From: Nemertoderma westbladi
Taxonomy: Eukaryota > Animalia > Xenacoelomorpha
NCBI GenBank assembly: GCA_032718475.1
Contig: JAUCBJ010004634.1
Span: forward strand, 1-64,000
Direction: 5' to 3'
Length of the DNA stretch: 64,000 nt
The notes under the pieces were generated by a model, which was given only the letters and a program-made list of their open reading frames with translations, made no database searches and was not told the DNA's origin. A program made the position numbers and the translations under genes. Positions within the stretch are counted from its first letter, which is position 1. The number at the start of each line of letters is the position of its first letter. This document shows positions 1,006-56,102 of the stretch, in pieces.

Positions 1006-2326
1006 TGCGATTATTCGCAACATTCATGTCCCCAAGTTTATTCATACAGTAATTGTGTTTGTTATACATACCGTTATAGTTAAATTAACCCCGGTACTAC
1101 ACGGGCTGCTTGGCGTAGGAAAAGACTGGTGACTTTGTGCTTCGGTCACTCCAGCAGATGCCGTGGTTCTTTTAACTGTTCAAGTATATTTAACTACTGA
1201 TTATTTGTTGTACCAGTACTTGTACCTAATTTAGGGTTTAGTGTACAGTGCTTTCCGAAGTAATTAGTGTGTAGGCAGTATATTTGTGTTGTAAAGTGGT
1301 TAATAGGCACGCTGGATCTGGTAGTCCGCGGTAATTAACTTCTAGGTAGGAACACTCCGTGATACATAACGTAGTACCTATAGCGATACGGTTATAGGTC
1401 GTCAGGCGGTGGTATTTTCCTATCTGGACAGTGCAATATATTTACTACTACTTATTATTTTCAAATACCGTAGTACCCTGTCCGTTGTAATAACCAGAGT
1501 TCTAACCCTTTGTTAGACTGGTTTGTAGTTTCCCTGTAAAATTACCCTAAAATTTCGTACGTAATATTTTTGTTGTGTTTAGTTAGAGAATTAATCTCAC
1601 CCGTATCGTAAGTAATTCGTAGATAAGTAACTTAGGAAGTAGAATTATCTGTTTTAGTGTCTAATAAGTAGCACTTCACTGAGAGCGCACAGCTTTTGTG
1701 TAGTGATTACTTCCCAGAAATAATAACATCTATTTCAATATTGTAACAAAAACCCCTTTTTAACGGGTATATATCTATTATAAATCAACTCAAACGATTT
1801 ATAAATAGTAGGCCTGCCATACAACAACTAGGTCTCAATATCAGTTGGACTACTGCTTAAATAACGGTAATAAAGTAAGTTAAAGTAACCAAGTAACCCT
1901 AAAATATTCAGAAATTCAATTATTCTAAAATAATTGACATACCGGTATTTACCATAGGCTTATTATATTTATTTCTATAAATTTGTGCTGAAATCATACC
2001 GGTATTCTGTAATTAATTCTAGTCTGTAATAATTATACTTATATATACTATAAGTGTCAGCTGTATACCGGTATTCACGATAGGCCTATTATATATTTAT
2101 ATATATTTGTGCTAAAATTATATACCAGTACTCTGTGACAAATCTAGTCTGTAATAATACTTATATATATACTATAAGCATACTGGTATTCTAATATATT
2201 ATATATATATCACGCTACACTGAGTAGCAGTATCGGTAATTAATTGTTAGGCTAACAGTGATACTGAATTACTAGACTTACTTTGACTGTATTTATAGCC
2301 GTAGGCATTCAACTGTGTAAACAAAC

Positions 2327-5300: not shown

Positions 5301-6403
5301 CCTGTTACCTAATAAATACCTCAGTGTATCGAGCACTTACTTATGAAAAGGACATCAACAATGAGTTTCCCCCAACTACTTTTGCCAAACAACCATCGTG
5401 GAAAGCTCCAACTTCCAACGTAGGAATCAGAGAATTTCCTGTAGTGCAGGTAAGAGTTCATGGTCCTAACAAAAGTTACATAGTGAACGCCCTCCTTGAC
5501 TCCGGCAGCACAGGAACATTCATCGATCAAGAACTAGACGAAGATATTTTTGCTGGACAACCCAAATTCCGGACTAAATTGAATATGTCAGGAATTATGC
5601 AGGTCTGGAAATCTACCCTAACGGCAGACTACTATGTAGGTGTGTTGTCCACCCCCCAGGATAAATTAGGAGCACAAGGTATAAGGTCGGTAAAAATGGT
5701 GGCTATAAAGAACTTCGCTGCTACCCAAGCAGACCTTTATAATTGGGACGAGGATGAGAGCATCCAACATCTTAAGGTACCTCGATTCCAGACAGATTAT
5801 CCTGGAGTGCAAATACTCATCGGCCAAAACGCGCATGAGGCGCTCGAGACATTGGAGAAACGGCCTGCTCAACCGCAGCCACTACAAACCTATGCGGTAA
5901 GAACTAGAGTAGGTTGGTACTTCACTGGCCCTTCCCGTAGAACTCTCAAAGAGAGATTACTTCAACAACAGGTATACCAAGTAAAGGAATGGGAAGTGGA
6001 GAGCAGCGATGTGGACAATCCAACTGAGGGAACACCATACTCCTCAGATAATGACGATATTAACTCCAATGTAGATCAATGGAGACATTGCCTTGGGACG
6101 ATTAATCCAGCCGACATCGCTTCCAGAGGAGCAACTCCTCAAGAACTGATAGATACTCCAGGCTGGTTAGGTGGATCCGACTTCTTAAGTAAAGAAGAAG
6201 AAGAATGGCCTCCTCATCTTACCCCGGCGGAGATTAGACAGGCCAAGGGAGCGGAGAAAGTAACACAACAACTCAATCGCCCAGCTAGTCGTTTATGTTT
6301 ACTGGAAAGAGACCAAAAACTGTCCGGAAACTATGGAAGGCAAGATACTCTTCCTACGACCACTTCCCTAATCCGACAAGTATCTAGGGACTCCATAACG
6401 TAA
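2327..6403 (+). CDS. BEL/Pao gag-protease polyprotein fused in frame to the RNase H C-terminal remnant
   Basis: 1358-aa ORF. DUF1759-like gag (KFNGDEMKWLPF...EKLRFLIKCLEG), BEL zinc knuckles (CALCDGPHRLSAC, CYNCLRSGHQRRTC, third degenerate: YAKCDAKHH), protease LLDSGS, then WRHCLGTINPADIASRG. No RT motif and no integrase. Confidence 0.85.
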   Translation: MSDATQSLSDSLLESVRMSIRLRQRIKRICDQDKSIEHPRSKSKSPTIVKKAIPTVVVSDPRLVEQRRSIIGTRAQVKRDQEAAVKPQQHPSQEPSSQRPDSSGGSDTAERTPERGAKMADTVYDERPTYEESADATSSQVESEVESELTAAEKPRTRDAIDIYLSDYQRFIGDEELRRRLSGLRPNSEGTKLVLDAIDAEMLAANQAKFDERLRLVRVQEEQIKKKQIEDRKAAAVAATMAEVEAERKAAAAMAKAVAEAERRASEETTQLELENLQETQDYINKQLTASRMQMMRRSTPKRQGYTSSEESETTDPEGGGNRSPLSRRRKTSHRHKLPDLPPAVRRQLASTDLGSTEPTDQIIKVKRLPTIVDEPEIIRPVIPKATPVLETPVLPELNSKFPLHSTTLPVPGRTVHENIPVLEAEREIKDLSPVVPRQPATMLATPASAVEWVEEGRRGMNLLLGQMQETVHQLKGTVREGRAELQEVQQSIALERDKLVNIQKAIPITPVTLCQPVRSEVLHAQGVEPTRIYTASEVETPIANPIKGDYRPVVNDIPYRPDNDPRNLYTDNSILNNTMAQESFTRQMARTEARQAVKVGEIVKFNGDEMKWLPFNEYYKDSIQNSVLSNGEKLRFLIKCLEGPPRLMALKFIGHPEGLRQVWDTLNIRYGNKDNIAKYLYAKLVAPRHFLSSGIIEFSDEIQEICRQLDWLGKSHEYQSSMVIGAVVSTLPKGGVCTRWDKKVLYMNEQQRRSPTMTDLMSFLDGEVKLQLIKQSREKTSENKVSEKPVSRRVTPVCYTDDGESQVSQEEDSGKDTAKSYYDNKTYKDVSKYKSRTSDRREQVTTTPPTSPKRIHGRKPEERTRVHNVTQGKVSNIKPKCALCDGPHRLSACAEFLKKSPVDRRTVLWNKRLCYNCLRSGHQRRTCYSDVKYAKCDAKHHILLHSEFEQDNPSQVSEPELHVQFSDVNDTDQESEMEGFYTDEFSDANESCYLINTSVYRALTYEKDINNEFPPTTFAKQPSWKAPTSNVGIREFPVVQVRVHGPNKSYIVNALLDSGSTGTFIDQELDEDIFAGQPKFRTKLNMSGIMQVWKSTLTADYYVGVLSTPQDKLGAQGIRSVKMVAIKNFAATQADLYNWDEDESIQHLKVPRFQTDYPGVQILIGQNAHEALETLEKRPAQPQPLQTYAVRTRVGWYFTGPSRRTLKERLLQQQVYQVKEWEVESSDVDNPTEGTPYSSDNDDINSNVDQWRHCLGTINPADIASRGATPQELIDTPGWLGGSDFLSKEEEEWPPHLTPAEIRQAKGAEKVTQQLNRPASRLCLLERDQKLSGNYGRQDTLPTTTSLIRQVSRDSIT

Positions 6404-19904: not shown

Positions 19905-21234
19905 GCTCTGATTGATCTCGATTGCTGCAAAGCTATACAATATAATTCTATTAAATCGCATCAGGGATCCCATTGAGAGACTGCTCCGTGGAAATCAGAA
20001 TGGGTTCCGTAAAGGTCGTGGGACCATGGAGCCAATTTTGGCACTTAGAAGGATACTTGAAGAGTTATCAAAAAGGAAAGACAGGCATCTGGCTGTTATC
20101 TTTGTTGACTTCTTCAAGGCCTTTGATTCATCTTACTTTCATTATATGGGATTCCTGATGAAATTATTGCAGCAATCAGATCAGTATACGATGGTTCGAC
20201 AACATTTGTGTCTACTGTTGACGGTGACACAGAACCATTTGAAGTGTTATGGGGCGTCCTCCAGGGAGACACACTTGCACCATTCTTGTTCATAATTGTT
20301 GTTGACTATGTTCTACGCATGTCCTTAGATCATCAAAATGATGATGGGGTGATGATAACTCCACCTACTGGCTCCAGAAGTCGAGGAAATCCTCGCAAGT
20401 ACCTAACTGATCTAGACTTTGCTGATGACTTAGGAGTACTCTCAGAATCATTAGAGGGAGCCCAACGGCTCCTCAGCTCATTAGAACATGCTGCTTCTGG
20501 TGTTGGTCTTTTTATTAACTGAAAGACCAAATTTTGACAGTTAACTTTGAAAGTCCTCAGCAAGTCTCTGATCGGATGAGCATAAGCTCAAAAGTTGGTA
20601 TGCGTGAGCATGTCGACGACTTCTGTTACCTGGGATCATGGATACGGAAGTTAGGTGAGCACCTTCGAATACGTAAGGGAAAGGCATGGGCGGCCTTGAA
20701 TAGGCTTTCCAGGATTTGGAAGTCACCGAGAATTAATCGGAAACTTAAGGTCCGATTATTTAGAGCAGCAGTAGTTCCAGTACTCCTCTATAGGAGTCCA
20801 TGCAGGGCTCTAACTGCTGAGGACACCAAATCTCTGGATGGCACATTCACAAGAATGCTACGCCGGGTTCATTGTGTTAAGTACAACGCACACATCTCTA
20901 ACCAGACACTATATAACATTGGAAGTGTCTCATTGGTTCCACCAAGCTTGACACTAGAACAAAATCGCCTCCGCTTTGCAGGACATTGCTTTCGCCGTGA
21001 GGACCAGCCAGTGCATAATCTTGTACTTTGGCAGCCTCATGGAGTGAATAAGCATGGTGGACAGCCCATGACTTTCTTGAGACGCATCTTAAAGGACACT
21101 GGCCTTGAAGATGCGGATCATCTAGCAAATGTCATGGGTGATAGGGAGTTGTGGCGGTGCAATTTTGTCGACAAGCCGGCACAGCATTCTTAAAAATGCA
21201 GCTGCAATGTAGCATGCCGATACTAGTAGTAGTA
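19905..21234 (+). mobile_element. 5'-truncated RTE-clade (RTE-X-like) non-LTR retrotransposon, frameshifted
   Basis: RT motifs QNGFRKGR, FVDFFKAFDS, GVLQGDTLAP, DLDFADD. (TAG)n tail. 12-bp TSD GCTCTGGACAAT at 19893-19904 and 21235-21246. Confidence 0.9.
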
Positions 21235-23652: not shown

Positions 23653-24224
23653 ATCTATTCGCTTTTCAATCATTTCCACTGTCTCCGATATAACTGCTGT
23701 CAAACATTATTATACATTTACCACATTCTTTACCAAAGACTTCAAGGTAAGTTAGTAATGCAAATGTTTTACAGTAGGAACTGGAACAGTTTATCTCGTA
23801 ATCTTCCATACTGGTTGATCGTCGGTTGACAACCTTGTCAAGTTATTAGTTATACTTGGATGGATATGCTGTTTCCTTATTTTAAATCACCAAAAATTAC
23901 AATAATTTAAGAATAGAATAGCAAATTAAAGCAAGTTAATATGTCGGACTACCGGTTATATACCATCCATAATCGGTTCAAGTTGTTTCGATCTATTGTG
24001 GTTTCTCCGCGATTTTCTTTTTCTACATAAATTTTGCAATTTAATTCCCTACCAAGCGTTTTTCTAGATTTGCGTTGTTTTATTTCGCTGTCTAATGCGT
24101 TCCAGAAAATGGCACCATGTTATTTTAGTAAATTTTGGGTTAGTATTGTCGGGTCCGTTTTGCCGACATGCCATTAATCGAGTATTATAGGAATGTTTGA
24201 ATCAAGACTGCGATAAGTGATCTG

Positions 24225-25311
24225 TTGAGAGACCAAATTTCCGTAAAGGTCGTGGGACCATGGAGCCTATTTTGGCTCTTAGAGGAATAATCGAAGAGTT
24301 ATTAATAACGAGAGACAGGCGACTGGCTATTATTTTTGTTGACTTCTTTAAAGCCTTCGACTCAGTTTTCACACCACGTATGTTCAGCTTACTGGTTGGA
24401 TATGGCATTCTTGAGGAAATTATTGCAGCTATCAGATCACTGTGCGATGGTCCCACCACATTTGTATCTACTGCTGATGGTGACACAGATCCATTCGAAA
24501 TCTTATGGGGAGTCCTTCAGGATGACACACTTGCACCGTTCTTATTAGGAATTGTTGTTGATTATGTTCTACGCATTTCCTTAGAGAACATCTTAAAGGA
24601 CACCGGCCTTGAAGATGCGGATGATCTAGCAAATGTCATGGGTGATAGGGAGTTGTGGCGGTGCACTTTTGTCGACAAGCCGGCATAGCATTCTTAATAC
24701 TGGCACTCCACCTACTGGCACAAGAAGTAGAGGAAATCCAGCAAAGTTCCTTACTGATCTAGATTTTGCTGATGACTTAGGGGTACTGTTAGAATCACTA
24801 GAGGGAGCCCAAAGGCTGCTCTGCTCAGTGGAGCAGGTTGCTTCTAGTGTTGGTCTTTTTGTAAACTACAAGAATACCAAAATTATTACTACAAGAAATG
24901 TTATTATTATTAACAAGTTATTATTACAAGAAATGTCTGATCGTAATGGTATAAGCTCTAAGGACGGCTTGCTTGAGCACGTGGATGACTTCTGCTACTT
25001 GGGATCTTGGAGCAGGAAGTCAGGTGAAGATACGTAAGGAGAAGGCATGGGCAGCATTGAATTGTTTGTCTAGGATTTGGAAATCCCATAGAAAAATCGG
25101 GATCTCAAGATTCGATTATGTAGGGCATCGCATGGTGGGCTTGTGCTTTGGCGGCCTCATGGAGAAAATATGCATGGTGGATAGCCCATGACTTTCTTGA
25201 GACGCCTCTTAAAGGACACTGTCATTGAAGGTGCAGATGATCTAGCAAATGTAATGGGTGATAGTAAGTTGTGGCGGCGTGATTTTGTTAACAAGCCGGC
25301 ACAGCATTCTT
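24225..25311 (+). mobile_element. Rearranged/internally deleted RTE-clade fragments (two 3' ends)
   Basis: FVDFFKAFDS, GVLQDDTLAP, DLDFADD. The 3'-end sequence ...aagccggca(t/c)agcattcttaa occurs at ~24690 and ~25305. Confidence 0.85.
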
Positions 25312-25848: not shown

Positions 25849-26061
25849 ATTGTGGATCATTGTCTACTGGTGGTCCTAGCGAAGGGGGCGGCCGTCAAAA
25901 AAACTGTTATAGAGTTAACGTACATAAAACCTTGACATACTCCGGGGCTGTGGCGGACTGCAGGGCTCAGCCTACACATGGTATATTCCGTAGGGGCTGG
26001 CACCTAGCAACAATTCAAAAGGACACTCCCGAACAGGATACAGTAAAGAATTTGCAAGCTC
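25849..26061 (+). CDS. Host gene exon: C-type lectin domain, N-terminal part
   Basis: phase 1-1, NCYRV...LTYSGAVADCRAQ...WHLATIQ...EQDTV. Confidence 0.8.
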
Positions 26062-26074
26062 GTAAGTGAATTAA

Positions 26075-28263
26075 TATAATATTTACTTATATCACTCTAA
26101 ATATATAATATTTACTTATATCACTCTAAAATATAATAATTATCACTCTAAAATATAATAATTATCACTCTAAAATATATAATACTTACTTATATCACTC
26201 TAAATATATATTATTTACTTATATCACTCTAAAATATATAATAATTACTTATATCACTCTAAAATATATAATAATTACTTATATCACTCTAAAATATAAT
26301 AATTATCACTCTAAAATATATAATACTTACTTATATCACTCTAAATATATATTATTTACTTATATCACTCTAAAATATATAATAATTACTTATATCACTC
26401 TAAAATATATAATAATTACTTATATCACTCTAAAATATAATAATTATCACTCTAAAATATATAATACCTACTTATATCACTCTAAATATATAATATTTAC
26501 TTATATCACTCTAAAATATAATAATTATCACTCTAAAATATATAATACTTACTTATATCACTCTAAATATATATTATTTACTTATATCACTCTAAAATAT
26601 ATAATAATTACTTATATCACTCTAAAATATATAATAATTACTTATATCACTCTAAAATATAATAATTATCACTCTAAAATATATAATACTTACTTATATC
26701 ACTCTAAATATATAATATTTACTTATATCACTCTAAAATATATAATAATTACTTATATCACTCTAAAATATATAATAATTACTTATATCACTCTAAATAT
26801 ATAATAATTACTTATATCACTCTAAAATATATAATAATTACTTATATCACTCTAAAGATATAATATTTACTTATATCACTCTAAAATATATAATAATTAC
26901 TTATATCACTCTAAAATATATAATAATTACTTATATCACTCTAAAATATATAATAATTACTTATATCACTCTAAAATATATAATAATTACTTATATCACT
27001 CTAAATATATAATATTTACTTATATCACTCTAAAATATAATAATTATCACTCTAAAATATATAATACTTACTTATATCACTCTAAATATATAATATTTAC
27101 TTATATCACTCTAAAATATAATAATTATCACTCTAAAATATATAATACTTACTTATATCACTCTAAATATATAATATTTACTTATATCACTCTAAAATAT
27201 AATAATTATCACTCTAAAATATATAATACTTACTTATATCACTCTAAATATATAATATTTACTTATATCACTCTATAATATAATAATTATCACTCTAAAA
27301 TATATAATACTTACTTATATCACTCTAAATATATAATATTTACTTATATCACTCTAAATATATAATATTTTCTTATATCACTCTAAAATATATAATACTT
27401 ACTTATATCACTCTAAATGTATAATATTTACTTATATCATTCTAAAATATATAATACTTACTTATATCACTCTAAATATATAATATTTACTTATATCACT
27501 CTAAATATATAATATTTTCTTATATCACTCTAAAATATATAATAATTACTTATATCACTCTAAATGTATAATATTTACTTATATCATTCTAAAATATATA
27601 ATACTTACTTATATCACTCTAAATATATAATATTTACTTATATCACTCTAAATATATAATATTTTCTTATATCACTCTAAATATATAATATTTACTTATA
27701 TCACTCTAAATATATAATATTTTTTTATATCACTCTAAAATATATAATACTTACTTATATCACTCTAAATGTATAATATTTACTTATATCATTCTAAAAT
27801 ATATAATAATTACTTATATCACTCTAAAATATATAATAATTACTTATATCACTCTAAAATATATAATAATTACTTATATCACTCTAAAATATATAATAAT
27901 TACTTATATCACTCTAAAATATATAATAATTACTTATATCACTCTAAAATATATAATAATTACTTATATCACTCTAAAATATATAATAATTACTTATATC
28001 ATTCTAAATATATACCGGTAATATTTACTTATATCACTCTAAAATATAATAATTATCACTCTAAAATATATAATACTTACTTATATCACTCTAAATATAT
28101 AATATTTACTTATATCACTCTAAATATATAATACTTACTTATATCACTCTAAATATATAATATTTACTTATATCACTCTAAATATATAATAATTACTTAT
28201 ATCACTCTAAAATATATAATAATTACTTATATCACTCTAAAATATATAATAATTACTTATATC
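26075..28263 (+). repeat. 29/30-bp AT-rich satellite, left array
   Basis: (tacttatatcactctaaaatatataataat)n, with shortened and variant units. Confidence 0.97.
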
Positions 28264-28490
28264 TTAATTATTCCAGAATATAAATCTTGTTTAATAGAGT
28301 CCAGATATACATTAAAGCAAAACTAAATTACAAGAAACCGGTTAACTACATAATATTGTACAAAGTTCGTATATAGAGGAGCTAAAATTCGTAAAACATC
28401 AAATTCTCTCTCAGAGTAAGAAATACTCTAATACGAACAGACGGTCAATCATCCATCTATTGTTATAAAAGTAATCTCAAGTCTCCAGGG

Positions 28491-28679
28491 TTACAGTTTT
28501 GTACTATCGAGTGTGCTATGCCTCGTCATTTCCGAATTGTAATTGACAGTTCTTTGATTGATAAAAGCCAAGCGCTGTTGGTTACCCCGGCAACAAACGC
28601 GACGAAAGTCCCGACGAAATTGTTGTGACATAATATTATATAATATTGGGTTCACTGCTGAGTTGAGATAAATTAACAC
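28491..28679 (-). pseudogene. Isolated last exon of a class A GPCR (TM7 + helix 8 + C-tail; TRH/ETH-receptor-like)
   Basis: [30 protein letters not shown] has NPxxY, the helix-8 FR motif and palmitoylation-type Cys. Preceded by ttctcatAG; followed by a UTR with ATTAAA at 28295-28290. Confidence 0.8.
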
Positions 28680-28697
28680 CTATGAGAATTCCTGGAT

Positions 28698-31600
28698 TCA
28701 GAGTAGGAATACCTCATCAAGGCCCGCCTGGTGGGGGGTGGTACCTAGGACAGATGTCGCGTTCCCTCTGACCACTGCAATTGAGAGCCGCTGGAAAAGG
28801 AATTCTGTGGACCTAGGTTCACCTGTTTCCTTGGCGATTCTCCGCCCTATCTCCCGCAGTACTGCGGTGCCTTCTGCACCGATTGGGCCTAAGGTCTCTA
28901 AGGCAATAGTGCGGAATAAGTGGTGGTGCTGGAGCGCAGCATACTTATTTCCTTTACTGGTCTCTGCCATTAAAGCGGCTGCACCTGCAGATTTACTTGT
29001 CTCGGGTAGATAGGAAGGAGCGAGGGTGTCCCTGCAAGTAAAGTCCCAAACGAGTGGGCGGCCTGAGGACCAAGGGGCAAAGGTCAAACCGTCTGGTGTC
29101 TTGCCGTCTTGTGAAAGTCCTCGAGGCTCCAAGGTGGAGGCAATGCCGGCTGATGAGAGTGCACGGTGAATGATGTCATTGGCCTCTGCATGACGGGTGT
29201 ATTTCCCATAATTGTGTAAGCAGCTGAGGCCATGACTTCCACTCGTGTCGACTTCCAACCCGCAACCCCTGCAGGAATGCTCCTCGCAAATAGGTGTACC
29301 CAAGCGGAGAGCTGCTCCCACCCGCAGCTGCTCATCACTGAGGCGAAGGCCTAGGGATGATACCGGCAGTGCCCTTAGCCAGTCCCCGGCGTGGTCTGCG
29401 GCGGCAGCTAGGAGACGAGCCTTCTCTTTTGCTGATGAGGCTTTGGTGATCAGTTCATCCTGTCGTGATGAGCACAGCGGGGCATCCCATCCTTTCTGAA
29501 TGGCTTGATTGATTGGTTCAGGAAAATCGGTAGGTAGTAGTTGCTTCGCAGCTATTAGGAGTGGGTTGGGGATGCTGGAAATGGAACTGGGTAGTAGGGT
29601 GTTAAGCAGTGGGATGCACCCATGGCTGGAAGCCAGGAAAGCTGGTAAAGCTACGTCGGATGTGCTTCTAACCCCCAGTCCGCCCAAAGATATTGGAAGG
29701 GAAGCCTGGGCCCAAGCATCGCCCCCAATCCTAGTGTTGAGCACAATTTGGCAGCACTGCCGAATCTTATCATCTAGAGACTTCAATCGAGGCGATCCAA
29801 AGGCGGGTGAACACCGCAGCACATACATCAACTTCGGAATGGCAAAGCAATGTCTGAGTAGGTATAGGGCGTCATGCGCCGATAGAAGGTGGAGGCGGTC
29901 GGCGAACCTAGAGAGGTCTGATTCCTTCTCTTCAAGGATCTTCTCCATGGCTGAATCTCCTAGGGGTGATCCAAGCAACAGCGCATCAGAAAAATCGATT
30001 GGTTTAATGCTTGGTGTGATGGCATCAAACAGAGCTGTTGTCTCTTCTTTCAGTTCTAAGGGAAAGTGCTTGCCAAAGATTAACTCACACTTGGATGCCT
30101 TGACCATAAGCCCTAGCTTTGCTGCCTCGGCTATGACCCTCTTCAGGTCAGAAGCAACAACAGATGGTGTTCCACCCAAGGAACCGTCATCCAGGAACCA
30201 CACGTTGAGAGGAGATTCCATGCTATCGACAAGTTCAATTGTGTCGTTGCTGAAGAATAGAGAGGCTAGTGGGTCTCCCTGTTGCATACCATCGTCAGAG
30301 GCAATTGTTGTCCCATTGTAGAATAGGAGAGAGGGTTGCGAATATGACTGATATGCCAGGTTGTATAGTGGTGGGAGGTTCTTTAGCACTGCCCTCAAGG
30401 CTGGTCCACGGTGAATACTGTTGAAGGCATTTGAGAAATCAATTTTGATCATGACTGTCTCTCTCTCTATTGACTCACTGAGGAAACGCCTGGCTGCATG
30501 TACTGCTGCTTCTGCACCCCGGGGGGTCCCGAACCCTAGCTGATGGGGTCCTAGCTTTAAACCGGAATGCTTTGCCGCTGAATGGCAGCCTGTTTTGGCG
30601 GTAAGTCGACGCAGAGTGCACCCCACGGCTATGGGGCGAACTCCACCTGCTGGTTTAGTGAAAGCACAAAGCCTGGCGCCATAGAGGTAAGGGAGAACTT
30701 CCTGGGGCACTCCTCCCTTTAGCATGATATTAGCTACCGATGTCATAGCCTTGAGGGAAGCCAGGGCAGCATCCCCCGCTGATGATGAGATCATGTCCTT
30801 GAGGAACTGAGGACGGCAGTTGTCGGGACCTGGTGCCGAGCCATTGGGGAATAGCTTGATTGATTTTAGAACCTCTGGGTAAGATAGCTCGAGGGTCGGG
30901 ACATCTGCTTCCTCTAATGACGGTACTCCGTGGAAGTCATCTGATGGGCGTGTAGGATGAAGGAGTCGGAGGGCTTCAAGGGTCTCTGAGGTGGCTGGGG
31001 CTATAGTGGCTGATGAGGATGCTAGTCGTGCAGCTGCTTTCACATTTCCTTCTTCTATCTTAGAGGCTATCAATTTCCCAAGCATGTCATCCGAGGATTG
31101 TTGAGTCTTGGGCTTCAGATGGGATGGAAGGCTAGTCGTAGGCAGTACTAGTATTTCTTTGGTGTTCTTGACCATCTCTTCAAATTCCAACAGTTGGTCC
31201 TTTACCTTGGCTGTGAGTGATTTGCAGGCTGGACCGATAGCCCTCCGGCCACGTCTGGACCTTGATCCCTGGGAGGGTACTCTGAGAGAGAATGGAAAGG
31301 CCAGCAGGTTTAACCAGTTTGACTGACTGTTGTTGAGGACGATGGCATCACAGAGACTACTGTAAAGTGTGGCTGCTTTTAGTCTTGCACCCCTGGGGAT
31401 ACGAGTCAGGGTTCTGATCCTAGTGAGGGTTTCGAATGCACTGCTAAGTGAATCTGATATGGCGCTCTGGCTGGCTACCACAGGAGCAGGGGATGGAGTG
31501 TCATTGGTAAACGGTTGGGACAGTAGTCCGGGTGACCCTTGAGACATGGCTGGCTGATTAGAGTGTAAGTCGGGTGGAATTGCAGCTTCAGCAGGAGCGG

Positions 31601-32687
31601 AGGAACCGGTGGCTGGAAATGTAATGATGGAACCTGACCCAGGACAAGAGGTGCCTTCAGTGGATCTGTGTTTGCGCAGCCCTCCCTTGGGGTTGACACA
31701 GCATAATTTAGAGCAGGTGGTGCATGGGAACTTGAGGGACAGTCCTCCACTGGTAACGGTGGGAGGTTGTCCCGGCTCTAGCGGTGCAATTGATGGAGTA
31801 TGGGTAAATAGGGGTGGATGAGAGTTCGGGACCAGAGTGGGGTCTCCAATTTGATTGTTATCCTGGGAGGATTCGGCTGATTGGATTGGAGGTTGTTTCG
31901 GCTCTAGCGGTGAGATTGATTGTGTATGGTTAAGCACGGGTGGGTGAGAATTCGGAAACGGGGTGGGATCTCCAATTGGAGGTGGTGTAGGTGTCGATGC
32001 CTTCTGTTGATTGGCTGACCAAACTAGAGGGGCATTTCTGGAAATATCAGAATACAGATCACTACGATGCTTGGAAATGGTAATATCATTGATATCCTCA
32101 AAATCCGATCGTGAGTAACCTTCAATACACCACTTTGCATACCTACAGATATATACCCCACATTGATAGGTGTTGTATTGCACCTTTTGAATGGAGGGAT
32201 AAACGGTAATTGGGGGGAGGTCCACATTGTAATGAATGGCAACAAGATGCACCCATTCTTTGATAGAATCAACAACTGTTTGGTTAGAGCCCCCCAGTGA
32301 GTCGAAAAACCAAATTGCTGACTTTAAAGGGGAGTAAACAGCAAGGGTCCAGTGGCAATTGTTTACATTTATAGGGAAAAATATGAAATCGTTATCAAAA
32401 ACTGGCACTGAAGCGCCCTTGCTCAGACTCTGTATGTTCTTAAAGCCGCCTTCTTGAAAGATGTCAACGAAATGAGAGTTAAAAACTCTTGCATGGTCGT
32501 TGTAGCCTAAACACAAGCTGGATATAACTGCTTCAACAATGTTATCTGTCAACCAGTTTTGCCCATTTAACGATTCTATATCGTGCCTCGAGAGAGGCAG
32601 ACCTCCAAATTCGTACATGTCTTCAGATTCGGGAGGTGGGTCTGCTAGAAGCTCACTATCAGTGAGACTAATGCAGGGTATTTCCAT
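28698..32687 (-). CDS. Ulp1/SENP (C48) protease - zinc finger - reverse transcriptase - CCHC - restriction-like endonuclease polyprotein
   Basis: 1329-aa intact ORF. Protease: WLTDNIV, FPINVNNCHW, FFDSLG, QYNTYQCGVY. ZnF: CTTC...RKH...CPGS. RT: GGVRPIAVG, DFSNAFNS, GMQQGDPL, WFLDDG. RLE: CRGC...HGLSC, RH, PDG...WDFT, KGNKY, ETLG, RLSIAVVRGNA. Confidence 0.9.
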   Translation of the reverse strand: MEIPCISLTDSELLADPPPESEDMYEFGGLPLSRHDIESLNGQNWLTDNIVEAVISSLCLGYNDHARVFNSHFVDIFQEGGFKNIQSLSKGASVPVFDNDFIFFPINVNNCHWTLAVYSPLKSAIWFFDSLGGSNQTVVDSIKEWVHLVAIHYNVDLPPITVYPSIQKVQYNTYQCGVYICRYAKWCIEGYSRSDFEDINDITISKHRSDLYSDISRNAPLVWSANQQKASTPTPPPIGDPTPFPNSHPPVLNHTQSISPLEPKQPPIQSAESSQDNNQIGDPTLVPNSHPPLFTHTPSIAPLEPGQPPTVTSGGLSLKFPCTTCSKLCCVNPKGGLRKHRSTEGTSCPGSGSIITFPATGSSAPAEAAIPPDLHSNQPAMSQGSPGLLSQPFTNDTPSPAPVVASQSAISDSLSSAFETLTRIRTLTRIPRGARLKAATLYSSLCDAIVLNNSQSNWLNLLAFPFSLRVPSQGSRSRRGRRAIGPACKSLTAKVKDQLLEFEEMVKNTKEILVLPTTSLPSHLKPKTQQSSDDMLGKLIASKIEEGNVKAAARLASSSATIAPATSETLEALRLLHPTRPSDDFHGVPSLEEADVPTLELSYPEVLKSIKLFPNGSAPGPDNCRPQFLKDMISSSAGDAALASLKAMTSVANIMLKGGVPQEVLPYLYGARLCAFTKPAGGVRPIAVGCTLRRLTAKTGCHSAAKHSGLKLGPHQLGFGTPRGAEAAVHAARRFLSESIERETVMIKIDFSNAFNSIHRGPALRAVLKNLPPLYNLAYQSYSQPSLLFYNGTTIASDDGMQQGDPLASLFFSNDTIELVDSMESPLNVWFLDDGSLGGTPSVVASDLKRVIAEAAKLGLMVKASKCELIFGKHFPLELKEETTALFDAITPSIKPIDFSDALLLGSPLGDSAMEKILEEKESDLSRFADRLHLLSAHDALYLLRHCFAIPKLMYVLRCSPAFGSPRLKSLDDKIRQCCQIVLNTRIGGDAWAQASLPISLGGLGVRSTSDVALPAFLASSHGCIPLLNTLLPSSISSIPNPLLIAAKQLLPTDFPEPINQAIQKGWDAPLCSSRQDELITKASSAKEKARLLAAAADHAGDWLRALPVSSLGLRLSDEQLRVGAALRLGTPICEEHSCRGCGLEVDTSGSHGLSCLHNYGKYTRHAEANDIIHRALSSAGIASTLEPRGLSQDGKTPDGLTFAPWSSGRPLVWDFTCRDTLAPSYLPETSKSAGAAALMAETSKGNKYAALQHHHLFRTIALETLGPIGAEGTAVLREIGRRIAKETGEPRSTEFLFQRLSIAVVRGNATSVLGTTPHQAGLDEVFLL

Positions 32688-32828
32688 GATTGATCGTTTG
32701 AAGGAAGGAGGCCTTTAGTTTGTTTAGCTAGTCGCATTCATTTGGACGTGCAGACGCACCATCACCGCCTACCATCGACAATAAATGGACATGGTTCTGT
32801 TTTTATATACAATCTAACTCAAAAAACC

Positions 32829-35800
32829 ATTACTTATATCACTCTAAAATATATAATAATTACTTATATCACTCTAAAATATATAATAATTACTTATATC
32901 ACTCTAAAATATATAATAATTACTTATAACACTCTAAAATATATAATATTTTCTTATATCACTCTAAAATATATAATATTTTCTTATATCACTCTAAAAT
33001 ATATAATATTTTCTTATATCACTCTAAAATATATAATAATTACTTATAACACTCTAAAATATATAATATTTACTTATATCACTCTAAAATATATAATATT
33101 TTCTTATATCTCTCTAAAATATATAATAATTACTTATATCACTCTAAAATATATAATAATTACTTATATCACTCTAAAATATATAATAATTACTTATATC
33201 ACTCTAAATATATAATATTTACTTATATCACTCTAAAATATATAATATTTACTTATATCACTCTAAAATATATAATATTTTCTTATATCACTCTAAAATA
33301 TATAATAATTACTTATATCACTCTAAATATATAATATTTACTTATATCACTCTAAAATATATAATATTTACTTATATCACTCTAAAATATATAATATTTT
33401 CTTATATCACTCTAAAATATATAATAATTACTTATATCACTCTAAAATATATAATATTTACTTATATCACTCTAAAATATATAATATTTTCTTATATCAC
33501 TCTAAAATATATAATATTTACTTATATCACTCTAAATGTATAATATTTTCTTATATCACTCTAAAATATATAATATTTTCTTATATCACTCTAAAATATA
33601 TAATAATTACTTATATCACTCTAAAATATATAATAATTACTTATATCACTCTAAAATATATAATATTTTCTTATAACACTCTAAATGTATAATATTTACT
33701 TATATCACTCTAAAATATATAATATTTACTTATATCACTCTAAAATATATAATATTTTCTTATAACACTCTAAATGTATAATATTTTCTTATATCACTCT
33801 AAAATATATAATATTTTCTTATATCACTCTAAAATATATAATAATTACTTATATCACTCTAAAATATATAATATTTACTTATATCACTCTAAATATATAA
33901 TATTTTCTTATATCACTCTAAAATATATAATAATTACTTATATCACTCTAAATATATAATATTTACTTATATCATTCTAAAATATATAATATTTACTTAT
34001 ATCACTCTAAAATATATAATATTTTCTTATAACACTCTAAATGTATAATATTTTCTTATATCACTCTAAATATATAATATTTTCTTATATCACTCTAAAA
34101 TATATAATATTTTCTTATATCACTCTAAAATATATAATAATTACTTATATCACTCTAAAATATATAATATTTACTTATATCACTCTAAAATATATAATAT
34201 TTTCTTATATCACTCTAAAATATATAATAATTACTTATATCACTCTAAATATATAATATTTACTTATATCATTCTAAAATATATAATATTTACTTATATC
34301 ACTCTAAAATATATAATATTTTCTTATATCACTCTAAAATATATAATAATTACTTATATCACTCTAAATATATAATAATTACTTATATCACTCTAAAATA
34401 TATAATATTTTCTTATATCACTCTAAAATATATAATAATTACTTATATCACTCTAAATATATAATATTTACTTATATCACTCTAAAATATATAATAATTA
34501 CTTATATCACTCTAAATATATAATAATTACTTATAACACTCTAAAATATATAATATTTTCTTATATCACACTAAAATATATAATAATTACTTATATCACT
34601 CTAAATATATAATATTTACTTATATCACTCTAAAATATATAATATTTACTTATATCACTCTAAAATATATAATATTTTCTTATAACACTCTAAATGTATA
34701 ATATTTTCTTATATCACTCTAAAATATATAATATTTTCTTATATCACTCTAAAATATATAATAATTACTTATATCACTCTAAAATATATAATAATTACTT
34801 ATATCACTCTAAAATATATAATATTTTCTTATATCACTCTAAAATATATAATAATTACTTATATCACTCTAAAATATATAATAATTACTTATATCACTCT
34901 AAAATATATAATAATTACTTATATCACTCTAAATATATAATAATTACTTATATCACTCTAAATATATAATACTTACTTATATCACTCTAAAATATATAAT
35001 ATTTACTTATATCACTCTAAATATATAATATTTACTTATATCACTCTAAAATATATAATATTTACTTATATCACTCTAAAATATATAATATTTTCTTATA
35101 ACACTCTAAATGTATAATATTTTCTTATATCACTCTAAAATATATAATAATTACTTATATCACTCTAAAATATATAATAATTACTTATATCACTCTAAAA
35201 TATATAATAATTACTTATATCACTCTAAATATATAATAATTACTTATATCACTCTAAAATATATAATATTTACTTATATCACTCTAAATATATAATATTT
35301 ACTTATATCACTCTAAAATATATAATATTTACTTATATCACTCTAAATATATAATATTTACTTATATCACTCTAAAATATATAATATTTTCTTATAACAC
35401 TCTAAATGTATAATATTTTCTTATAACACTCTAAATGTATAATATTTACTTATATCACTCTAAAATATATAATATTTACTTATATCACTCTAAAATATAT
35501 AATATTTTCTTATAACACTCTAAATGTATAATATTTTCTTATATCACTCTAAAATATATAATATTTTCTTATATCACTCTAAAATATATAATAATTACTT
35601 ATATCACTCTAAAATATATAATATTTTCTTATAACACTCTAAATGTATAATATTTTCTTATATCACTCTAACATATATAATATTTTCTTATAACACTCTA
35701 AATGTATAATATTTACTTATATCACTCTAAAATATATAATATTTACTTATATCACTCTAAAATATATAATATTTTCTTATAACACTCTAAATGTATAATA

Positions 35801-38322
35801 TTTTCTTATATCACTCTAAAATATATAATATTTTCTTATATCACTCTAAAATATATAATAATTACTTATATCACTCTAAAATATATAATATTTACTTATA
35901 TCACTCTAAATATATAATATTTTCTTATATCACTCTAAAATATATAATAATTACTTATATCACTCTAAATATATAATATTTACTTATATCATTCTAAAAT
36001 ATATAATATTTACTTATATCACTCTAAAATATATAATATTTTCTTATAACACTCTAAATGTATAATATTTTCTTATATCACTCTAAATATATAATATTTT
36101 CTTATATCACTCTAAAATATATAATATTTTCTTATATCACTCTAAAATATATAATAATTACTTATATCACTCTAAAATATATAATATTTACTTATATCAC
36201 TCTAAAATATATAATATTTTCTTATATCACTCTAAAATATATAATAATTACTTATATCACTCTAAATATATAATATTTACTTATATCATTCTAAAATATA
36301 TAATATTTACTTATATCACTCTAAAATATATAATATTTTCTTATATCACTCTAAAATATATAATAATTACTTATATCACTCTAAATATATAATAATTACT
36401 TATATCACTCTAAAATATATAATATTTTCTTATATCACTCTAAAATATATAATAATTACTTATATCACTCTAAATATATAATATTTACTTATATCACTCT
36501 AAAATATATAATAATTACTTATATCACTCTAAATATATAATAATTACTTATAACACTCTAAAATATATAATATTTTCTTATATCACACTAAAATATATAA
36601 TAATTACTTATATCACTCTAAATATATAATATTTACTTATATCACTCTAAAATATATAATATTTACTTATATCACTCTAAAATATATAATATTTTCTTAT
36701 AACACTCTAAATGTATAATATTTTCTTATATCACTCTAAAATATATAATATTTTCTTATATCACTCTAAAATATATAATAATTACTTATATCACTCTAAA
36801 ATATATAATAATTACTTATATCACTCTAAAATATATAATATTTACTTATATCACTCTAAAATATATAATATTTTCTTATATCACTCTAAAATATATAATA
36901 ATTACTTATATCACTCTAAATATATAATAATTACTTATATCACTCTAAAATATATAATAATTACTTATATCACTCTAAAATATATAATAATTACTTATAT
37001 CACTCTAAAATATATAATAATTACTTATATCACTCTAAATATATAATAATTACTTATATCACTCTAAATATATAATACTTACTTATATCACTCTAAAATA
37101 TATAATATTTACTTATATCACTCTAAATATATAATATTTACTTATATCACTCTAAAATATATAATATTTACTTATATCACTCTAAAATATATAATATTTT
37201 CTTATAACACTCTAAATGTATAATATTTTCTTATATCACTCTAAAATATATAATAATTACTTATATCACTCTAAAATATATAATAATTACTTATATCACT
37301 CTAAAATATATAATAATTACTTATATCACTCTAAATATATAATAATTACTTATATCACTCTAAAATATATAATATTTACTTATATCACTCTAAATATATA
37401 ATATTTACTTATATCACTCTAAAATATATAATATTTACTTATATCACTCTAAAATATATAATATTTTCTTATAACACTCTAAATGTATAATATTTTCTTA
37501 TATCACTCTAAAATATATAATATTTTCTTATATCACTCTAAAATATATAATAATTACTTATATCACTCTAAAATATATAATAATTACTTATATCACTCTA
37601 AAATATATAATATTTTCTTATATCACTCTAAAATATATAATAATTACTTATATCACTCTAAAATATATAATAATTACTTATATCACTCTAAAATATATAA
37701 TAATTACTTATATCACTCTAAATATATAATATTTACTTATATCACTCTAAAATATATAATATTTACTTATATCACTCTAAAATATATAATATTTTCTTAT
37801 AACACTCTAAATGTATAATATTTTCTTATATCACTCTAAAATATATAATATTTTCTTATATCACTCTAAAATATATAATAATTACTTATATCACTCTAAA
37901 TATATAATATTTTTTTATATCACTCTAAAATATATAATATTTTCTTATAACACTCTAAATGTATAATATTTTCTTATATCACTCTAAAATATATAATATT
38001 TACTTATATCACTCTAAAATATATAATATTTACTTATATCACTCTAAAATATATAATATTTTCTTATATCACTCTAAAATATATAATAATTACTTATATC
38101 ACTCTAAAATATATAATATTTACTTATATCACTCTAAAATATATAATATTTTCTTATAACACTCTAAATGTATAATATTTTCTTATATCACTCTAAAATA
38201 TATAATAATTACTTATATCACTCTAAACATATAATATTTACTTATATCACTCTATAAAATGTATAATATTTACTTATATCACTCTAAAAGATATAATATT
38301 TACTTATATCACTCTAAAATAT
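32829..38322 (+). repeat. 29/30-bp AT-rich satellite, right array, with a ~2017-bp higher-order duplication
   Basis: Same unit as the left array. Identical variant runs and translated ORFs recur at a 2017-bp offset (33774/35791, 34041/36058, 34694/36711). Confidence 0.97.
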
Positions 38323-38656
38323 ATTTTATTTTTTATATCGCTTTATCGTTTTTATATTTTAAATATAAAATGCTTTGAATGCTTCCGAGCACCAGCCAGA
38401 ATTGTTATAGCCAATGTCTGAATGACTGAGTGCTCAAAGTATCAATGAATAGTCCAAGCAGTCTAAGAATAAAATTGCTTACAGTATTACCTATAAAAAA
38501 AATCGGGATATCATTTTTTAAAACTTTATCGCTACTTTTTATCAAACTCGCGTCACTCAATAAATGTAATAAATACCTAGAAAATCGTGAAAAAATAGTC
38601 CTAATATTTTTTCCGAAGTAGGCCTATAAATATTTATTATATTCATTTTCATACAG

Positions 38657-46640: not shown

Positions 46641-48785
46641 TTAATACACAAATTTAAGTAAGCATAGATTGAATTTTATAAAGAGCAACATTTCAGCTTT
46701 CTCTGCAGCCAGACGATTTCGGAGTGGTGTATAAATTATACCAGCATGGGTGAACAGCTGTTCGGATGGCACACTGCTGGGGGTCGTAGCAAGATATATG
46801 CGTGCCATCCTGAACAAAGTCGGGTACTTAGAAGAATTGTCCTTCCGCCATGCCAAAACGTTGGATGAGTTATCAATTTGCTTTTCCATGAGATATGAGC
46901 GCAGTTCGCACACCCCCTCAGCAGCCGGAGCTGCATTGTCTGATTCCATAGAGGAGGTACCCAGGTCTTCTTCCTCACTTTCTATCATTTCCTCCGCCAT
47001 GGTTAGTAAGTCACTACTACGCGCCGTATCTATTCTTGGGGCTTTGGCCACTGGGGGAGGCGATGGATCACAGAGTTTAATGGCAATACGTTCTGCAGCC
47101 TCACATGCTGAACTGCGCACGCTATCCGATGAAAACAATTTTAGTTTGCGACGTGGATCCAGAATAGCGGCCAGCTGAACTGGTTCAATACACACAATCT
47201 TGTCAAATCGTTTCTTCACAGCAGTGTGCAATGAATGCATGACAGTACGAAGCCCCATGAAGTCCGGTTCATTGTAACGACCTAAGAATAATATTAACTC
47301 CTTACTTAGAAACAATTCATCAGCAAGAGTAGCATCGCTGCCACTCAATGAGACAGTCATATCCTTGATGGGTTTAAGGATCTTGATCAGCTTGCGGAGC
47401 AGATCGATTTCAGATTTAGTGAGATTTATGTCGAAATCAACACAAAAGTGTATGTAGCTAACCTGCATTTCCAGTTGCCCCTCGACCATGTCAAAAGTAG
47501 AATTCCACCGACTATCTACATCCTGAATAAATGATAATTGCTTCGGGTCATACTTCTTCTGAATTTCGCGCAAATGATGACTGTCCTTGAAGCTCTTATT
47601 AAAGTGCTGTGAGATCTTCCGGCATTTGGAGACTGCATTGTTCCAAGATGCTTGCACTTTGATGGCCTCGCCAACTGCCAAGTGCAATTGGTGACATGCG
47701 CAATCAAGGCTAGTCAACCCCATGTCTCTGAATGCTCTGACCATGTTTGTTCCACCATCACGCAAATACAACATGCACATCTTCTTGTTTAAGACCCCAC
47801 TGCTGAAGGTCCCCATGGAACTTGGCCTCAATCGTTGCATAGTTGTGTGAATCATCAAACTCAGACACACTGAGCACAACCTTGTAGCGCTTCGCTTTTT
47901 TTATCAATGGCGTGCAGTGTGAGACTTAGCAAGCTAACCTTACAGTTTTTGTTTGTCCATATGTCGGTGGTGAATGAGTACTTTTCGAAGCACTGGATGA
48001 AGTTGCGTACCATCTCAGACAACTTATTATAGATCTCAGGCACCTTAGTTTGCGAAAAAAAAACGTGCTTGACTTTATCTTATATTGCTTGTGTGAAGCA
48101 TTAGGCGTCGAAAACCCAACCCCTCTACATGCAAGAAGGGCAAATCGTCAAGTGCCAGCATTTCTGCAATCAGTCGATCAACTTCCTTTGCTTCAGGGCT
48201 GTCATAGGCCCATGTCCTATTTCGATTCAGGCTTTGCTCGATAGTCAGCTGTGTTTTGACAGTTTCTCTTGCAGCAATAAAGCTAGATTAAGTAACCATC
48301 TCTGAATCTCGATCTTTCGTCATCCTCCCCTGTTCCGCTTCCAGCTCCTCCAGTTGATTGTGCTGCTTCTTGTGCACCAACCTCAGGTGCTTTTTCAGTG
48401 CAGTACATGATCCACCTCGCTTGAGCATTTTATTGCAGATTTTACATAGCCCATACTTATTCTCAAAGAAATGCCATGTTTGGCTTTTATCTACCTCTAT
48501 TGGGGAGAAAAGTTCAAATGTCGATCGCGTGTCAGCTTGTTCAAGGTTTACCATCACCTCATTACTGTTCACCAACATTACTGTTGTCTCATTACCTTTT
48601 TCCAATATTGAAGCAGCTGATACCCCACTGCCACCCATTTCAAATTCGGAAACTTCATGCAACTGGTTCTCAACCGCTGAACCAATCTCACTACCTCCAG
48701 CATCATCAAATCCCTCAAATTCCTGTGAATCCTGAAAGTAACTTTCATCAGATGAATGGCTTGATTCCATGACAAAACGTGACAT
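46641..48785 (-). pseudogene. hAT-family transposase (BED finger + DDE + dimerisation domain), frameshifted
   Basis: WHFF...CKICNK...LKKHLRLVH, FTTDIWT, CACHQLHL, SRWNSTFDM, YPTL...SSVPSEQLF. Confidence 0.9.
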
Positions 48786-53514: not shown

Positions 53515-53678
53515 CGATATTCGTAATATCTCCGTTGGACGCCCCAACTACGAATGGAGGTCTGTACGAAGTAATAGACGGAAATGAGGCGCAAGTTCGT
53601 GGGCCGGATAGATTCTCTCTCAAGTGCCTCTTCGAGATGAGTAACGATATACCCGGTGGCTGCCCCAATCCTATAGAG
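53515..53678 (+). CDS. Host gene exon: Ig-like domain 2, first half
   Basis: phase 1-0, ...GPDRFSLKCLF...PIE; continues as WYR in exon 56190. Confidence 0.75.
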
Positions 53679-53847
53679 GTATGTGGCAGATTGTTAAAAT
53701 ACTGTTTACTTTGGTATACAAAATGTTGGTATGTATAGCTACTATTTATTTAATTATTATCTTCTGCTGGTTGGTTGTATTTCCACCACATACAGTACAT
53801 ATTCTATTGGTCAAGAGACATTCGCAGTATGTCGTCTACGAGTACAC

Positions 53848-54753
53848 CTTGTTCATAATTGTAGTTGACTATGTTCTACGCATGTCCTTAGATCATCATA
53901 ATGATGATGGGGTGATGATAACTCCACCTACTGGCTCCAGAAGTCGAGGAAATCCTGCCAAGTACCTAACTGATCTAGACTTTGCTGATGACTTAGGAGT
54001 ACTCTCAGAATCACTAGAGGGAGCCCAACGGCTCCTCAGCTCATTAGAACAGGCTGCTTCTAGTGTTGGTCTCTTTATTAACTCCAGAAAGACCAAAATT
54101 TTGGCAGTTCACTTTGAAAGTCCTCAGCAAGTCTCTGACCGGATGAGCATAAGCTAAAAGGATGGTATGCTTGAGCATGTGGACGACTTCTGTGACCTGG
54201 GATTATGGATCCGGAAGTCAGGACTTACGTCATACGTAAGGGAAAGGCATGGGCAGCCTTGAATAGGCTTTCCAGGATTTGGAAGTCATCGAGAATTAAT
54301 CGGAAACTTAAGGTCCGATTATTTTGCGCAGCAGTAGTACCAGTACTCCTCTATGGGAGTCCATGCTGGGCTCTAACTGCTGAGGACACCAAATCTCTGG
54401 ATGGCACATTCACAAGAATGCTCCACCGGGTTCATTGTGTCAAGTACAATGCACACATCTCCAACCAGACACTATATAATATTGGAGGTGTCTCATTGGT
54501 TCCCCCAAGCTTGACACTAGAACAAAATCGCCTCCGCTTCTTTGCAGGACATTTCTTTCGCCGTGAGAACCAGCCAGTGCATAATCTTGTACCTTGGCAG
54601 CCTCATGGAGTGAATAAGCATGGTGGACAGCCCATGACTTTCTTGAGACGCATCTTAAAGGTTAAACGATTGTAGCGGCGCAATTTTGTCGACAAGCCGG
54701 CACAGCATTCTTAAAAATGCAGCTGCAATGCAGCATGCCGATCCTAGTAGTAG
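53848..54753 (+). mobile_element. 5'-truncated RTE-clade copy
   Basis: LFIIVVDY, DLDFADD, same 3' UTR and (TAG)n tail as 19905-21234. Confidence 0.9.
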
Positions 54754-55203
54754 TATGACCCGTAATATAGTGTATTGTCTGATGAAATTCATAATTTTAT
54801 ACAAATCGTTGTTTCGACTGGAAAATGGTTGTAATATTGCTTTAAATTTCAAATCGACTAGATCAAATCACCGTCTTTGTTACCATGACGCCAGAATTTT
54901 CGATTTTGCCTGTAGATTCGCTTTAAGCGTTTTAAACAAGTGTATTGTGTAAAATCACCCCCGTATCGTAGCCATTATTAGTCGAAATTCTGTCATATCA
55001 TCACAAGGATTCCTAATGTGTTACAATATCTGAATTTTATTGAAAAACATGTGAGATATAGCCGTTCAAAGATTGCAATAATTATTGTTCGCTGTAGGAT
55101 ATTTATTTATACTATTTAATACTTTCACATAATTCTAAATCGTTATTTCATGTACAGTATTTCATGAGTAGGTCTGCACCAGCGGTATGCTGCCTATGAA
55201 TAT

Positions 55204-56102
55204 GGGGTGATGGGGTGATGATAACTCCACCTTCTGGCTCCAGAAGTCGAGGAAATCCTGCCAAGTACCTAACTGATCTAGACTTTGCTGATGACTTAGG
55301 AGTACTCTCAGAATCATTAGAGGGAGCCCAACGGCTCCTCAGCTCATTAGAACATGCTGCTTCTAGTGTTGGTCTTTTTATTAACTCCAGAAAGACCAAA
55401 ATTCTGACAATTAACTTTGAAAGTCCTCAGCAAGTCTCTGATCGGATGAGCATAAGCTCAAAGGATGGTATGCTTGAGCATGTGGACGACTTCTGTTACC
55501 TGGGATCATGGATCCGGAAGTCAGGTGAGGACCTTCGAATACGTAAGGGAAAGGCATGGGCAGCCTTGAATAAGCTTTCCAGGATTTGGAAGTCACCTAG
55601 AATTAATCGGAAACTTAAGGTCCGCTTATTTAGAGCAGCAGTAGTTCCTGTACTCCTCTACGGGAGTCCATGCTGGGCTCTAACTGCTGAGGACACCAAA
55701 TCTCTGGATGGCACATTCACAAGAATGCTACGCCGGGGTTATTGTGTCAAGTACAATGCACACATCTCCAACCAGACCCTATATAACATTGGAGGTGTCT
55801 CATTGGTTCCCCCCAAGCTTGACACTAGAACAAAATCGCCTCCGCTTTGCAGGACATTGCTTTCGCGGTGAGGATCAGCCAGTGCATAATCTTGTACTTT
55901 GGCAGCCTCATGGAGTGAATAAGCATGGTGGACAGCCCATGACTTTCTTGAGACGCATCTTAAAGGACACTGGCCTTAAAGATGCGGATGATCTAGCAAA
56001 TGTCATGGGTGATGGGGAGTTGTGGCGGTGCAATTTTGTTGACAAGCCGGCGCAGCATTCTTAAAAATGCAGCTGCAATGCAGCATGCCGATTCTAGTAG
56101 CA
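55204..56102 (+). mobile_element. 5'-truncated RTE-clade copy with a 12-bp TSD
   Basis: DLDFADD, FCYLGS, same 3' end. TSD GCCTATGAATAT at 55192-55203 and 56103-56114. Confidence 0.9.

Follow-up and report, generated by a model that had tools for sequence, protein, structure and literature searches.

We identified, in a 64,000-nucleotide stretch of DNA from the xenacoelomorph Nemertoderma westbladi (assembly GCA_032718475.1, contig JAUCBJ010004634.1, positions 1 to 64,000; hereafter the window), a retrotransposon without long terminal repeats (non-LTR) that encodes a real and, judged by its residues, catalytically complete Ulp1/SENP protease domain (Peptidase_C48, hereafter C48) in frame with a reverse transcriptase (RT) of the restriction-like endonuclease (RLE) type. 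The element is CRE-like, likely a member of the CRE group, and it likely gained the protease separately from NeSL elements. As a first-pass annotation made from the letters alone had reported, its open reading frame (ORF) is uninterrupted: the stop-to-stop frame spans 28698..32714 on the reverse strand and, from the ATG at 32687, reads 1329 aa without a stop (28698..32687). Frame scanning, Pfam and motifs divide this single ORF into the C48 protease, a linker, a zinc finger, the RT, a CCHC knuckle and the RLE. A Pro/Ser-rich linker (aa 226-321; 31725..32012, reverse strand as for all parts of the protein) leads to a CxxC..H..C finger (aa 322-348; 31644..31724) of a kind that lies near the N-terminus in relatives. 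The RT core follows (RVT_1 in Pfam, aa 678-870, E value of 7.5e-10; 30078..30656) with QQGDPL at 802 and FLDD at 831, then the C-terminal CCHC knuckle (aa 1139-1156; 29220..29273) and the RLE motifs RH..E..PD..D..K (aa 1165-1249; 28941..29195), with PD at 1198, WD at 1214 and E..K..KY at 1242. Every motif predicted after the protease was thus found at its expected place, and the layout has the features that define RLE-type non-LTR retrotransposons (PMC3636483): a single ORF, a CCHC motif and a PD-(D/E)XK-like endonuclease downstream of the RT, and no apurinic/apyrimidinic endonuclease.

The protease domain extends over approximately aa 24-216 (32040..32618) and was delimited by Pfam, sequence matches in the PDB, model and fold searches, and a residue census (W45, C111, H112, W113, D129, Q170 and C176). 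Pfam Peptidase_C48 (PF02902) matched aa 45-214 with an E value of 3.6e-14 (53.6 bits, cut-off 20.7). The catalytic set is complete, with His112-Asp129-Cys176 and Gln170 carried by HW at 112, FFDS at 127 and QYNTYQCG at 170-177. The strongest PDB sequence matches were to the SUMO proteases SENP1 (1.1e-12) and Ulp1 (2e-12), far ahead of SENP8 (1.7e-3). An AlphaFold model of aa 1-230 reached a predicted local distance difference test (pLDDT) score of 85.5 and, in Foldseek, retrieved SENP5, SENP2 and SENP-type Ulp1 as top matches (E ~1e-13, TM 0.68-0.75), although the model rests on an alignment of C48 proteins and is not independent of the sequence match. Pfam, PDB matches, model and motif positions all bear out the earlier call of an N-terminal C48 domain with a His-Asp-Cys triad and oxyanion Gln. 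In Ulp1, C580-H514-D531 form the triad while W448, S513 and W515 build a tunnel around the Gly-Gly of the substrate (PMC9603560); these six residues (C580, H514, D531, W448, S513 and W515) align with C176, H112, D129, W45, C111 and W113 of the element. Among 110 C48 domains, positions H112, W113, D129, Q170, C176 and W45 are 95-100% conserved. The domain therefore shares its fold, triad, oxyanion Gln and tunnel tryptophans with the cellular SENP1/2/3/5 and yeast Ulp1. It differs from them in that structural alignments are just 19-23% identical, several near-invariant surface residues are replaced and there is no N-terminal regulatory region. Identity to any of the 110 domains is at most 28%, and the C48 tree, which singles out no donor, places the query on a long end branch (1.23) and in no starred group.

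The relatives of the element suggest that the protease came late. From aa 420 onwards the protein has relatives at 38-47% identity (417 matches among 7988 scored candidates); of the best 120, none carried PF02902. Searched with a C48 profile from which the query had been left out, the window gave a match at 6.7e-41, whereas the 217 other family proteins gave none, and neither did 80 related loci read in six frames (the 80 best among 541, drawn from a scan covering 18 of 64 parts), the strongest locus alignment being 34 residues on the other strand (E 0.0016). An upstream stop closes the frame in 49 of the 50 loci that have both marker motifs in the ORF, and the distance from ORF start to the pre-RT motif has a median of 130 aa and a maximum of 296 in these 49, versus 438 in the element. 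The same kind of finger was present in 46 of the 49 loci with a 5'-closed ORF. Because relatives begin just before the finger and lack C48, the ancestral layout was probably finger-RT-RLE, to which the protease and linker appear to have been added. The sister sequence, P0002 (Shimodaira-Hasegawa-like approximate likelihood ratio test, 100), begins at the equivalent of ~aa 410, that is, past the protease region.

Ulp1-like domains are found in the NeSL elements of nematodes and in Utopia-1_TSP of the NeSL clade (PMC4640811), and their domain order equals that of our element. It could therefore be argued that there was no independent capture and that the element is a member of NeSL/Utopia, or of a CRE family with Ulp1 that has been catalogued before, the more so as the available sequence of its nearest relative, P0002, starts too late to be informative. 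We consider this very unlikely. All 11 NeSL rows of S5 Fig in PMC4640811 show, by eye, a P-[IVL]-C-[EA] signature before HW and no FN[ST]FF, whereas the element's protease reads PINVN and FNSHF, as do the cellular rows. Target-site deletion is described for NeSL and target duplication for all known CRE elements (PMC3636483), and the element is flanked by an apparent duplication and shows no deletion. NeSL elements also differ in their targets, the spliced-leader (SL) genes, as does Utopia (U2 genes). Separate capture is favored because the protease follows the cellular SENP1/Ulp1 pattern, unlike NeSL, and the relatives have no C48. The first-pass annotation had proposed such an independent capture, and the absence of C48 from 217/217 family proteins and 80/80 loci, together with the comparison by eye to NeSL, makes it likely.

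The probable affiliation with CRE draws on several indirect features. A 43%-identical relative (P0003) carries the NCBI name "Retrotransposable element SLACS protein", and the family profile reached the solved R2 proteins at just E 1e-14 over ~225 positions, while the single sequence did not reach them at E 0.01. The family has a YLDD-type motif, which we take to be typical of CRE. Members of the CRE group (SLACS, CZAR, CRE1/2; MoTeR, FoTeR, Cnl1) have in common a single ORF, an N-terminal finger, RT, CCHC, RLE and target duplication (PMC12278014, PMC3636483, PMC12857005), with one or two zinc-finger-like motifs at the N-terminus (PMC12278014). The element has the finger (aa 322-348) and the duplication (12 bp, or 42 or 72 bp), and departs from the group in its N-terminal C48, its insertion in an AT-rich satellite and the lack of a poly(A) tail, none being present at 28264-28310. 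A poly(A) tail is usual, but not universal, in CRE. The order and catalytic residues of the C-terminus match the consensus C-C-H-C..RHD/N..E..R/KPD..D/E quoted for the restriction enzyme-like (REL) endonuclease in PMC12857005, a consensus that is not specific to CRE; departures from it are the spacers 2/9/3/8 (off by one) and RHA, as in most relatives, and the TPD of the window copy. Trypanosomatid CRE elements insert into SL RNA genes, but the target here is a 30-bp AT-rich satellite, and Rfam found no match, such as SL RNA, at 26000-34000. Since fungal relatives of CRE target telomeres (PMC12857005), a non-SL target does not exclude membership in the wider CRE group. The pairing of Ulp1 with an RLE long interspersed nuclear element (LINE) is already known from NeSL; what may be new is a SENP-type protease in a CRE-like element. 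The literature listings and passages searched mention no CRE element with Ulp1, Repbase and its Reports, Dfam and subscription journals lying outside their scope, and the word "protease" is absent from the main text of two CRE papers (PMC12278014, PMC12857005). CRE elements are also included in the RLE survey of Fell et al. 2025 (cited via PMC13580325 and PMC13708176).

The element spans 28264..32828 (reverse strand, ~4.57 kb), where it interrupts the satellite array. The 3' untranslated region (UTR) covers 28264..28697 (reverse strand), the part shared with other copies ending at ~28291-28308. Comparison of the flanks revealed the two 12-bp copies of the apparent target-site duplication on the forward strand, left at 28252..28263 and right at 32829..32840. 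A repeat scan placed the satellite, read without strand, at 26074..28263 and 32830..38339. The size of the duplication (12, 42 or 72 bp) is ambiguous because the target is itself a 30-bp array. Folding of the 5' UTR showed no excess over shuffled sequences (z -0.46). One part of the 3' UTR (28362-28432) had raised depth and a loose end in two public runs (X1 and X2, below); a different repeat, or a partner that is not autonomous, may contain it too.

Searches aimed at the fusion itself returned no second case. No protein combining C48 and RT emerged from 655 candidates of 730-2326 aa searched with region 1-230, nor from the best 150 of 2589 matches for aa 1-620 among 50%-cluster representatives. 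A metagenome scan with the protease domain alone gave 154 pattern matches and 0 confirmed, and the viral contigs searched gave no match. The ESM Atlas had no usable match for aa 1-620 and unnamed RVT_1 clusters for aa 530-1329. An alignment query yielded three proteins, none with an RT, a weak negative given that RT relatives already known, and NeSL proteins altogether, were missed as well. That protease-bearing relatives were not found elsewhere would suit an assembly chimera or a one-off nested insertion, an explanation that is barely credible given the contigs that span the junction. Four public DNA runs (X1-X4) contain the stretch in whole or in part, and in three the share of its words is 90-94%; X1-X3 represent two samples, one possibly the source of the window itself, and no RNA runs are listed among the public runs containing the stretch. 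Together, the X1-X3 contigs cover the whole ORF. A single X2 contig (record 15) covers 30373-32600 (~aa 30-772) with 3 differences and an X1 contig (record 7) covers 31414-32693 (start to aa 425) with 1. As contigs of both samples, nearly identical to the window, carry protease and RT in one piece, the fusion is real and no assembly artefact. The first-pass annotation had asked whether sibling copies lack the protease; in the X1-X3 contigs it is present and joined to the RT. Run X4 had near-identical contigs over 28311-29391 only, and the missing cover there carries no weight.

The same contigs qualify the description of the element as intact and potentially active. The window copy differs from the main contigs at seven sites in ~4.5 kb, of which two lie in the 3' UTR, two are silent and three change residues 64, 512 and 1197 (by manual reading of the codons). 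Residue 1197 (site 29098) precedes the catalytic PD and is Thr in the window copy but Lys in the X1-X3 contigs; Arg or Lys occupies this position in 95 of 120 relatives. The window copy may therefore be impaired, since Thr replaces the usual basic residue in the endonuclease motif. It is also likely shortened in the 5' UTR, because at 32827 the X1-X3 contigs run on into different sequence (in X2, 114 letters with a depth of 583). The ORF is open, as the earlier description stated, and the family is young, but "potentially active" suits the family better than this copy. Contig depth was ~240-580 for the main and 13-67 for the variant contigs, which hints at several copies without giving a copy number; alternative ends and minor variant contigs likewise suggest several copies per genome, uncounted, and the 64-kb window holds only one. 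One other 3' flank was a different AT-rich sequence rather than the satellite. Targeting of the satellite is thus unsupported, as the listed contigs never bridge element and satellite. A second element of the same kind, ~82% identical over the endonuclease region (window 29042-29231), was also present in X1-X3.

We tentatively favor, at a little under an even chance, a role for the SENP-type domain as a leader protease that would cut its own chain after Gly314-Gly315 and free an RT protein of ancestral size. Translation from Met1 would produce one 1329-aa chain, in which the disordered linker of 90 residues could bring Gly-Gly to the tunnel of Trp45 and Trp113. Cleavage after Gly315 would then release finger, RT and RLE as a protein of 1014 aa, similar in size to the entire protein of the relatives, for ordinary target-primed reverse transcription, and the freed protease might target conjugates of host SUMO or of other ubiquitin-like proteins. 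This reading is favored because Gly-Gly adjoins the finger, Met is lacking upstream and the product size fits the relatives. The linker (96 aa) contains five glycines and a sole Gly-Gly, the candidate cleavage site at 314-315 (31743..31748, reverse strand; found by a census of the linker against relatives), seven residues ahead of the finger. Among 81 distinct protease-less relatives, a GG occurred within 10 residues of the finger in 4 and within 15 in 6; relatives with no finger or fewer than 12 residues ahead of it were left out, and in loci the pre-finger stretch can extend upstream of Met. Between residues 24 and 381 the ORF contains no Met, while the nearest Met upstream of the finger in relatives lies at a median distance of 19 residues. 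The chain after Gly315 measures 1014 aa and the relatives a median of 992 aa. The linker is predicted to be disordered and contains an internal duplication (31762-31854 and 31888-31980, 81% alike, with a 126-bp period), Gly-Gly following the second unit only. In a model of aa 1-360 the linker fell under pLDDT 50 and the model is uninformative there, and a predicted complex between aa 15-225 and aa 296-330, run with no alignment, was likewise uninformative (score 0.01).

The replaced residues of the protease bear on the same question. The element has T47 where 101 of 110 C48 domains have N, S87 where 93 have R or K, L88 where 99 have W, K168 where 106 have P and Q175 where 107 have D. We take the Ulp1 equivalents of T47, S87 and L88 (N450, R489 and W490) to contact the body of SUMO. 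Of the two functions raised in the first-pass annotation, polyprotein processing thus gains support from the Gly-Gly and the Met gap, and the replacement of conserved SENP residues outside the catalytic set takes some away from deSUMOylation. Several points nevertheless weigh against self-cleavage. The association of Gly-Gly with the protease is circumstantial, as it is seen in one family only, and the background rate of a finger-adjoining GG, 5-7%, is modest. No ubiquitin-like fold precedes Gly314-Gly315, though Ulp1 recognizes SUMO via an extensive interface (PMC9603560) and needs it wide. D48, F73, G81 and R208 are retained, so that the domain may still bind SUMO; the alignment is less sure at positions 82-90, the 110 comparison domains were selected for their likeness to the query, and the replacements could be plain drift on a long branch (1.23).

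A strong though less probable alternative is that a deSUMOylase, tethered or incidentally freed, strips SUMO from chromatin, from silencing factors or from the protein of the element itself and thereby aids expression or integration into heterochromatin. By sequence and by fold the domain matches SUMO proteases best, with the NEDD8 protease behind, and loss of SUMO in Drosophila derepresses R1 and R2 elements, with RNA up ~1000-fold and ~300-fold, respectively (PMC7676866). Ulp1 and OTU domains are recurrent in DNA transposases, Ulp1 in those of Ginger1 and Mutator (PMC2836005). Some relatives have chromatin-type accessory domains, and one has a ubiquitin-specific protease (USP). The window copy itself sits in a satellite, although one such copy shows no targeting and the one other 3' flank is non-satellite. 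The equivalents of N47, R87, W88, P168 and D175 are replaced, and deSUMOylation leaves Gly-Gly and the missing Met unexplained. Self-cleavage and deSUMOylation could both hold once the protease is freed. Ginger1 and Mutator/KAONASHI resemble the element in bearing a C48 of unproven role, but in these DNA transposons it is C-terminal on a DDE transposase, whereas here it is N-terminal on an RT polyprotein. Two MULE proteins with C48 (P0217 and P0207) were among the matches, and the C48 tree, poorly resolved here, does not join them to the query.

The domain might also be an unused passenger: template switching could have attached a SENP-like sequence, from the host or from a transposon, to the 5' end. 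Its base composition would fit, as G+C is 0.42 (0.42 at third codon positions, GC3) in the protease domain versus 0.51-0.55 (GC3 0.49-0.53) from RT to RLE, and the domain is found in one family only, whose copies are too alike for a test of selection. Yet all catalytic residues are kept despite at most 28% identity to the 110 C48 domains, and no stop interrupts the frame in the window copy or, judging from the differences listed, in the main X1-X3 contigs. We therefore rate a passenger as unlikely, well behind a working protease that cleaves its own linker.

Other accessory domains occur among the relatives. P0096 (cluster member P0272), a protein of 1661 aa, has an in-frame UCH ubiquitin-specific protease after the endonuclease (aa 1253-1642, E 1.3e-43), and its starred sister P0043 (1119 aa) does not have it; the P0096 domain may be a second, possible capture of a deconjugase. 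PHD, PHD+RFX or sub-threshold PWWP domains occupied the N-terminal slot of P0142, P0184, P0043, P0053, P0029 and P0039. The OTU-like look, by eye, of the N-termini of P0021 and P0227 was confirmed by neither Pfam nor phmmer.

The remainder of the window holds other transposon remains, consistent with repeat-rich, animal-like DNA. A 1360-codon frame with DUF1759 (2321-6403; E 2.6e-12) is presumably a BEL/Pao-type gag-protease, and the C-terminal part of a hAT transposase lies at 46641-47900 on the reverse strand (E 2.4e-17). Several broken copies of another LINE (20519-21193, 24221-25037 and 53645-55871, with RVT_1 and DUF6451 in 55200-55868) are RTE-like, as we assume. A second satellite of ~75 copies of a 53-bp unit fills 59268-63206.

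In the literature consulted, the roles given for Ulp1 domains in several transposon groups are proposals. The element offers a test case: its family is young, its triad is complete, a single candidate cut site lies at the edge of the ancestral protein, and numerous relatives without the protease can serve as natural controls. Were the gain independent of NeSL, two deep RLE lineages would have arrived at the same layout, which would argue for selection. In a broader proposal, which we hold to be possible though doubtful, a CRE-type LINE captured a SENP protease independently of NeSL and retuned it from the SUMO body to the Gly-Gly of its own linker, in convergence with virus-like polyproteins; with P0096, there would be at least two deconjugase captures and a general selective pull on ancient RLE LINEs. 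Because RLE elements are mined as gene-insertion tools, N-terminal processing may also be relevant to construct design. Self-cleavage, if true, would be polyprotein processing in a LINE, and cleavage of SUMO, if true, would be a LINE-encoded counter to SUMO-dependent silencing.

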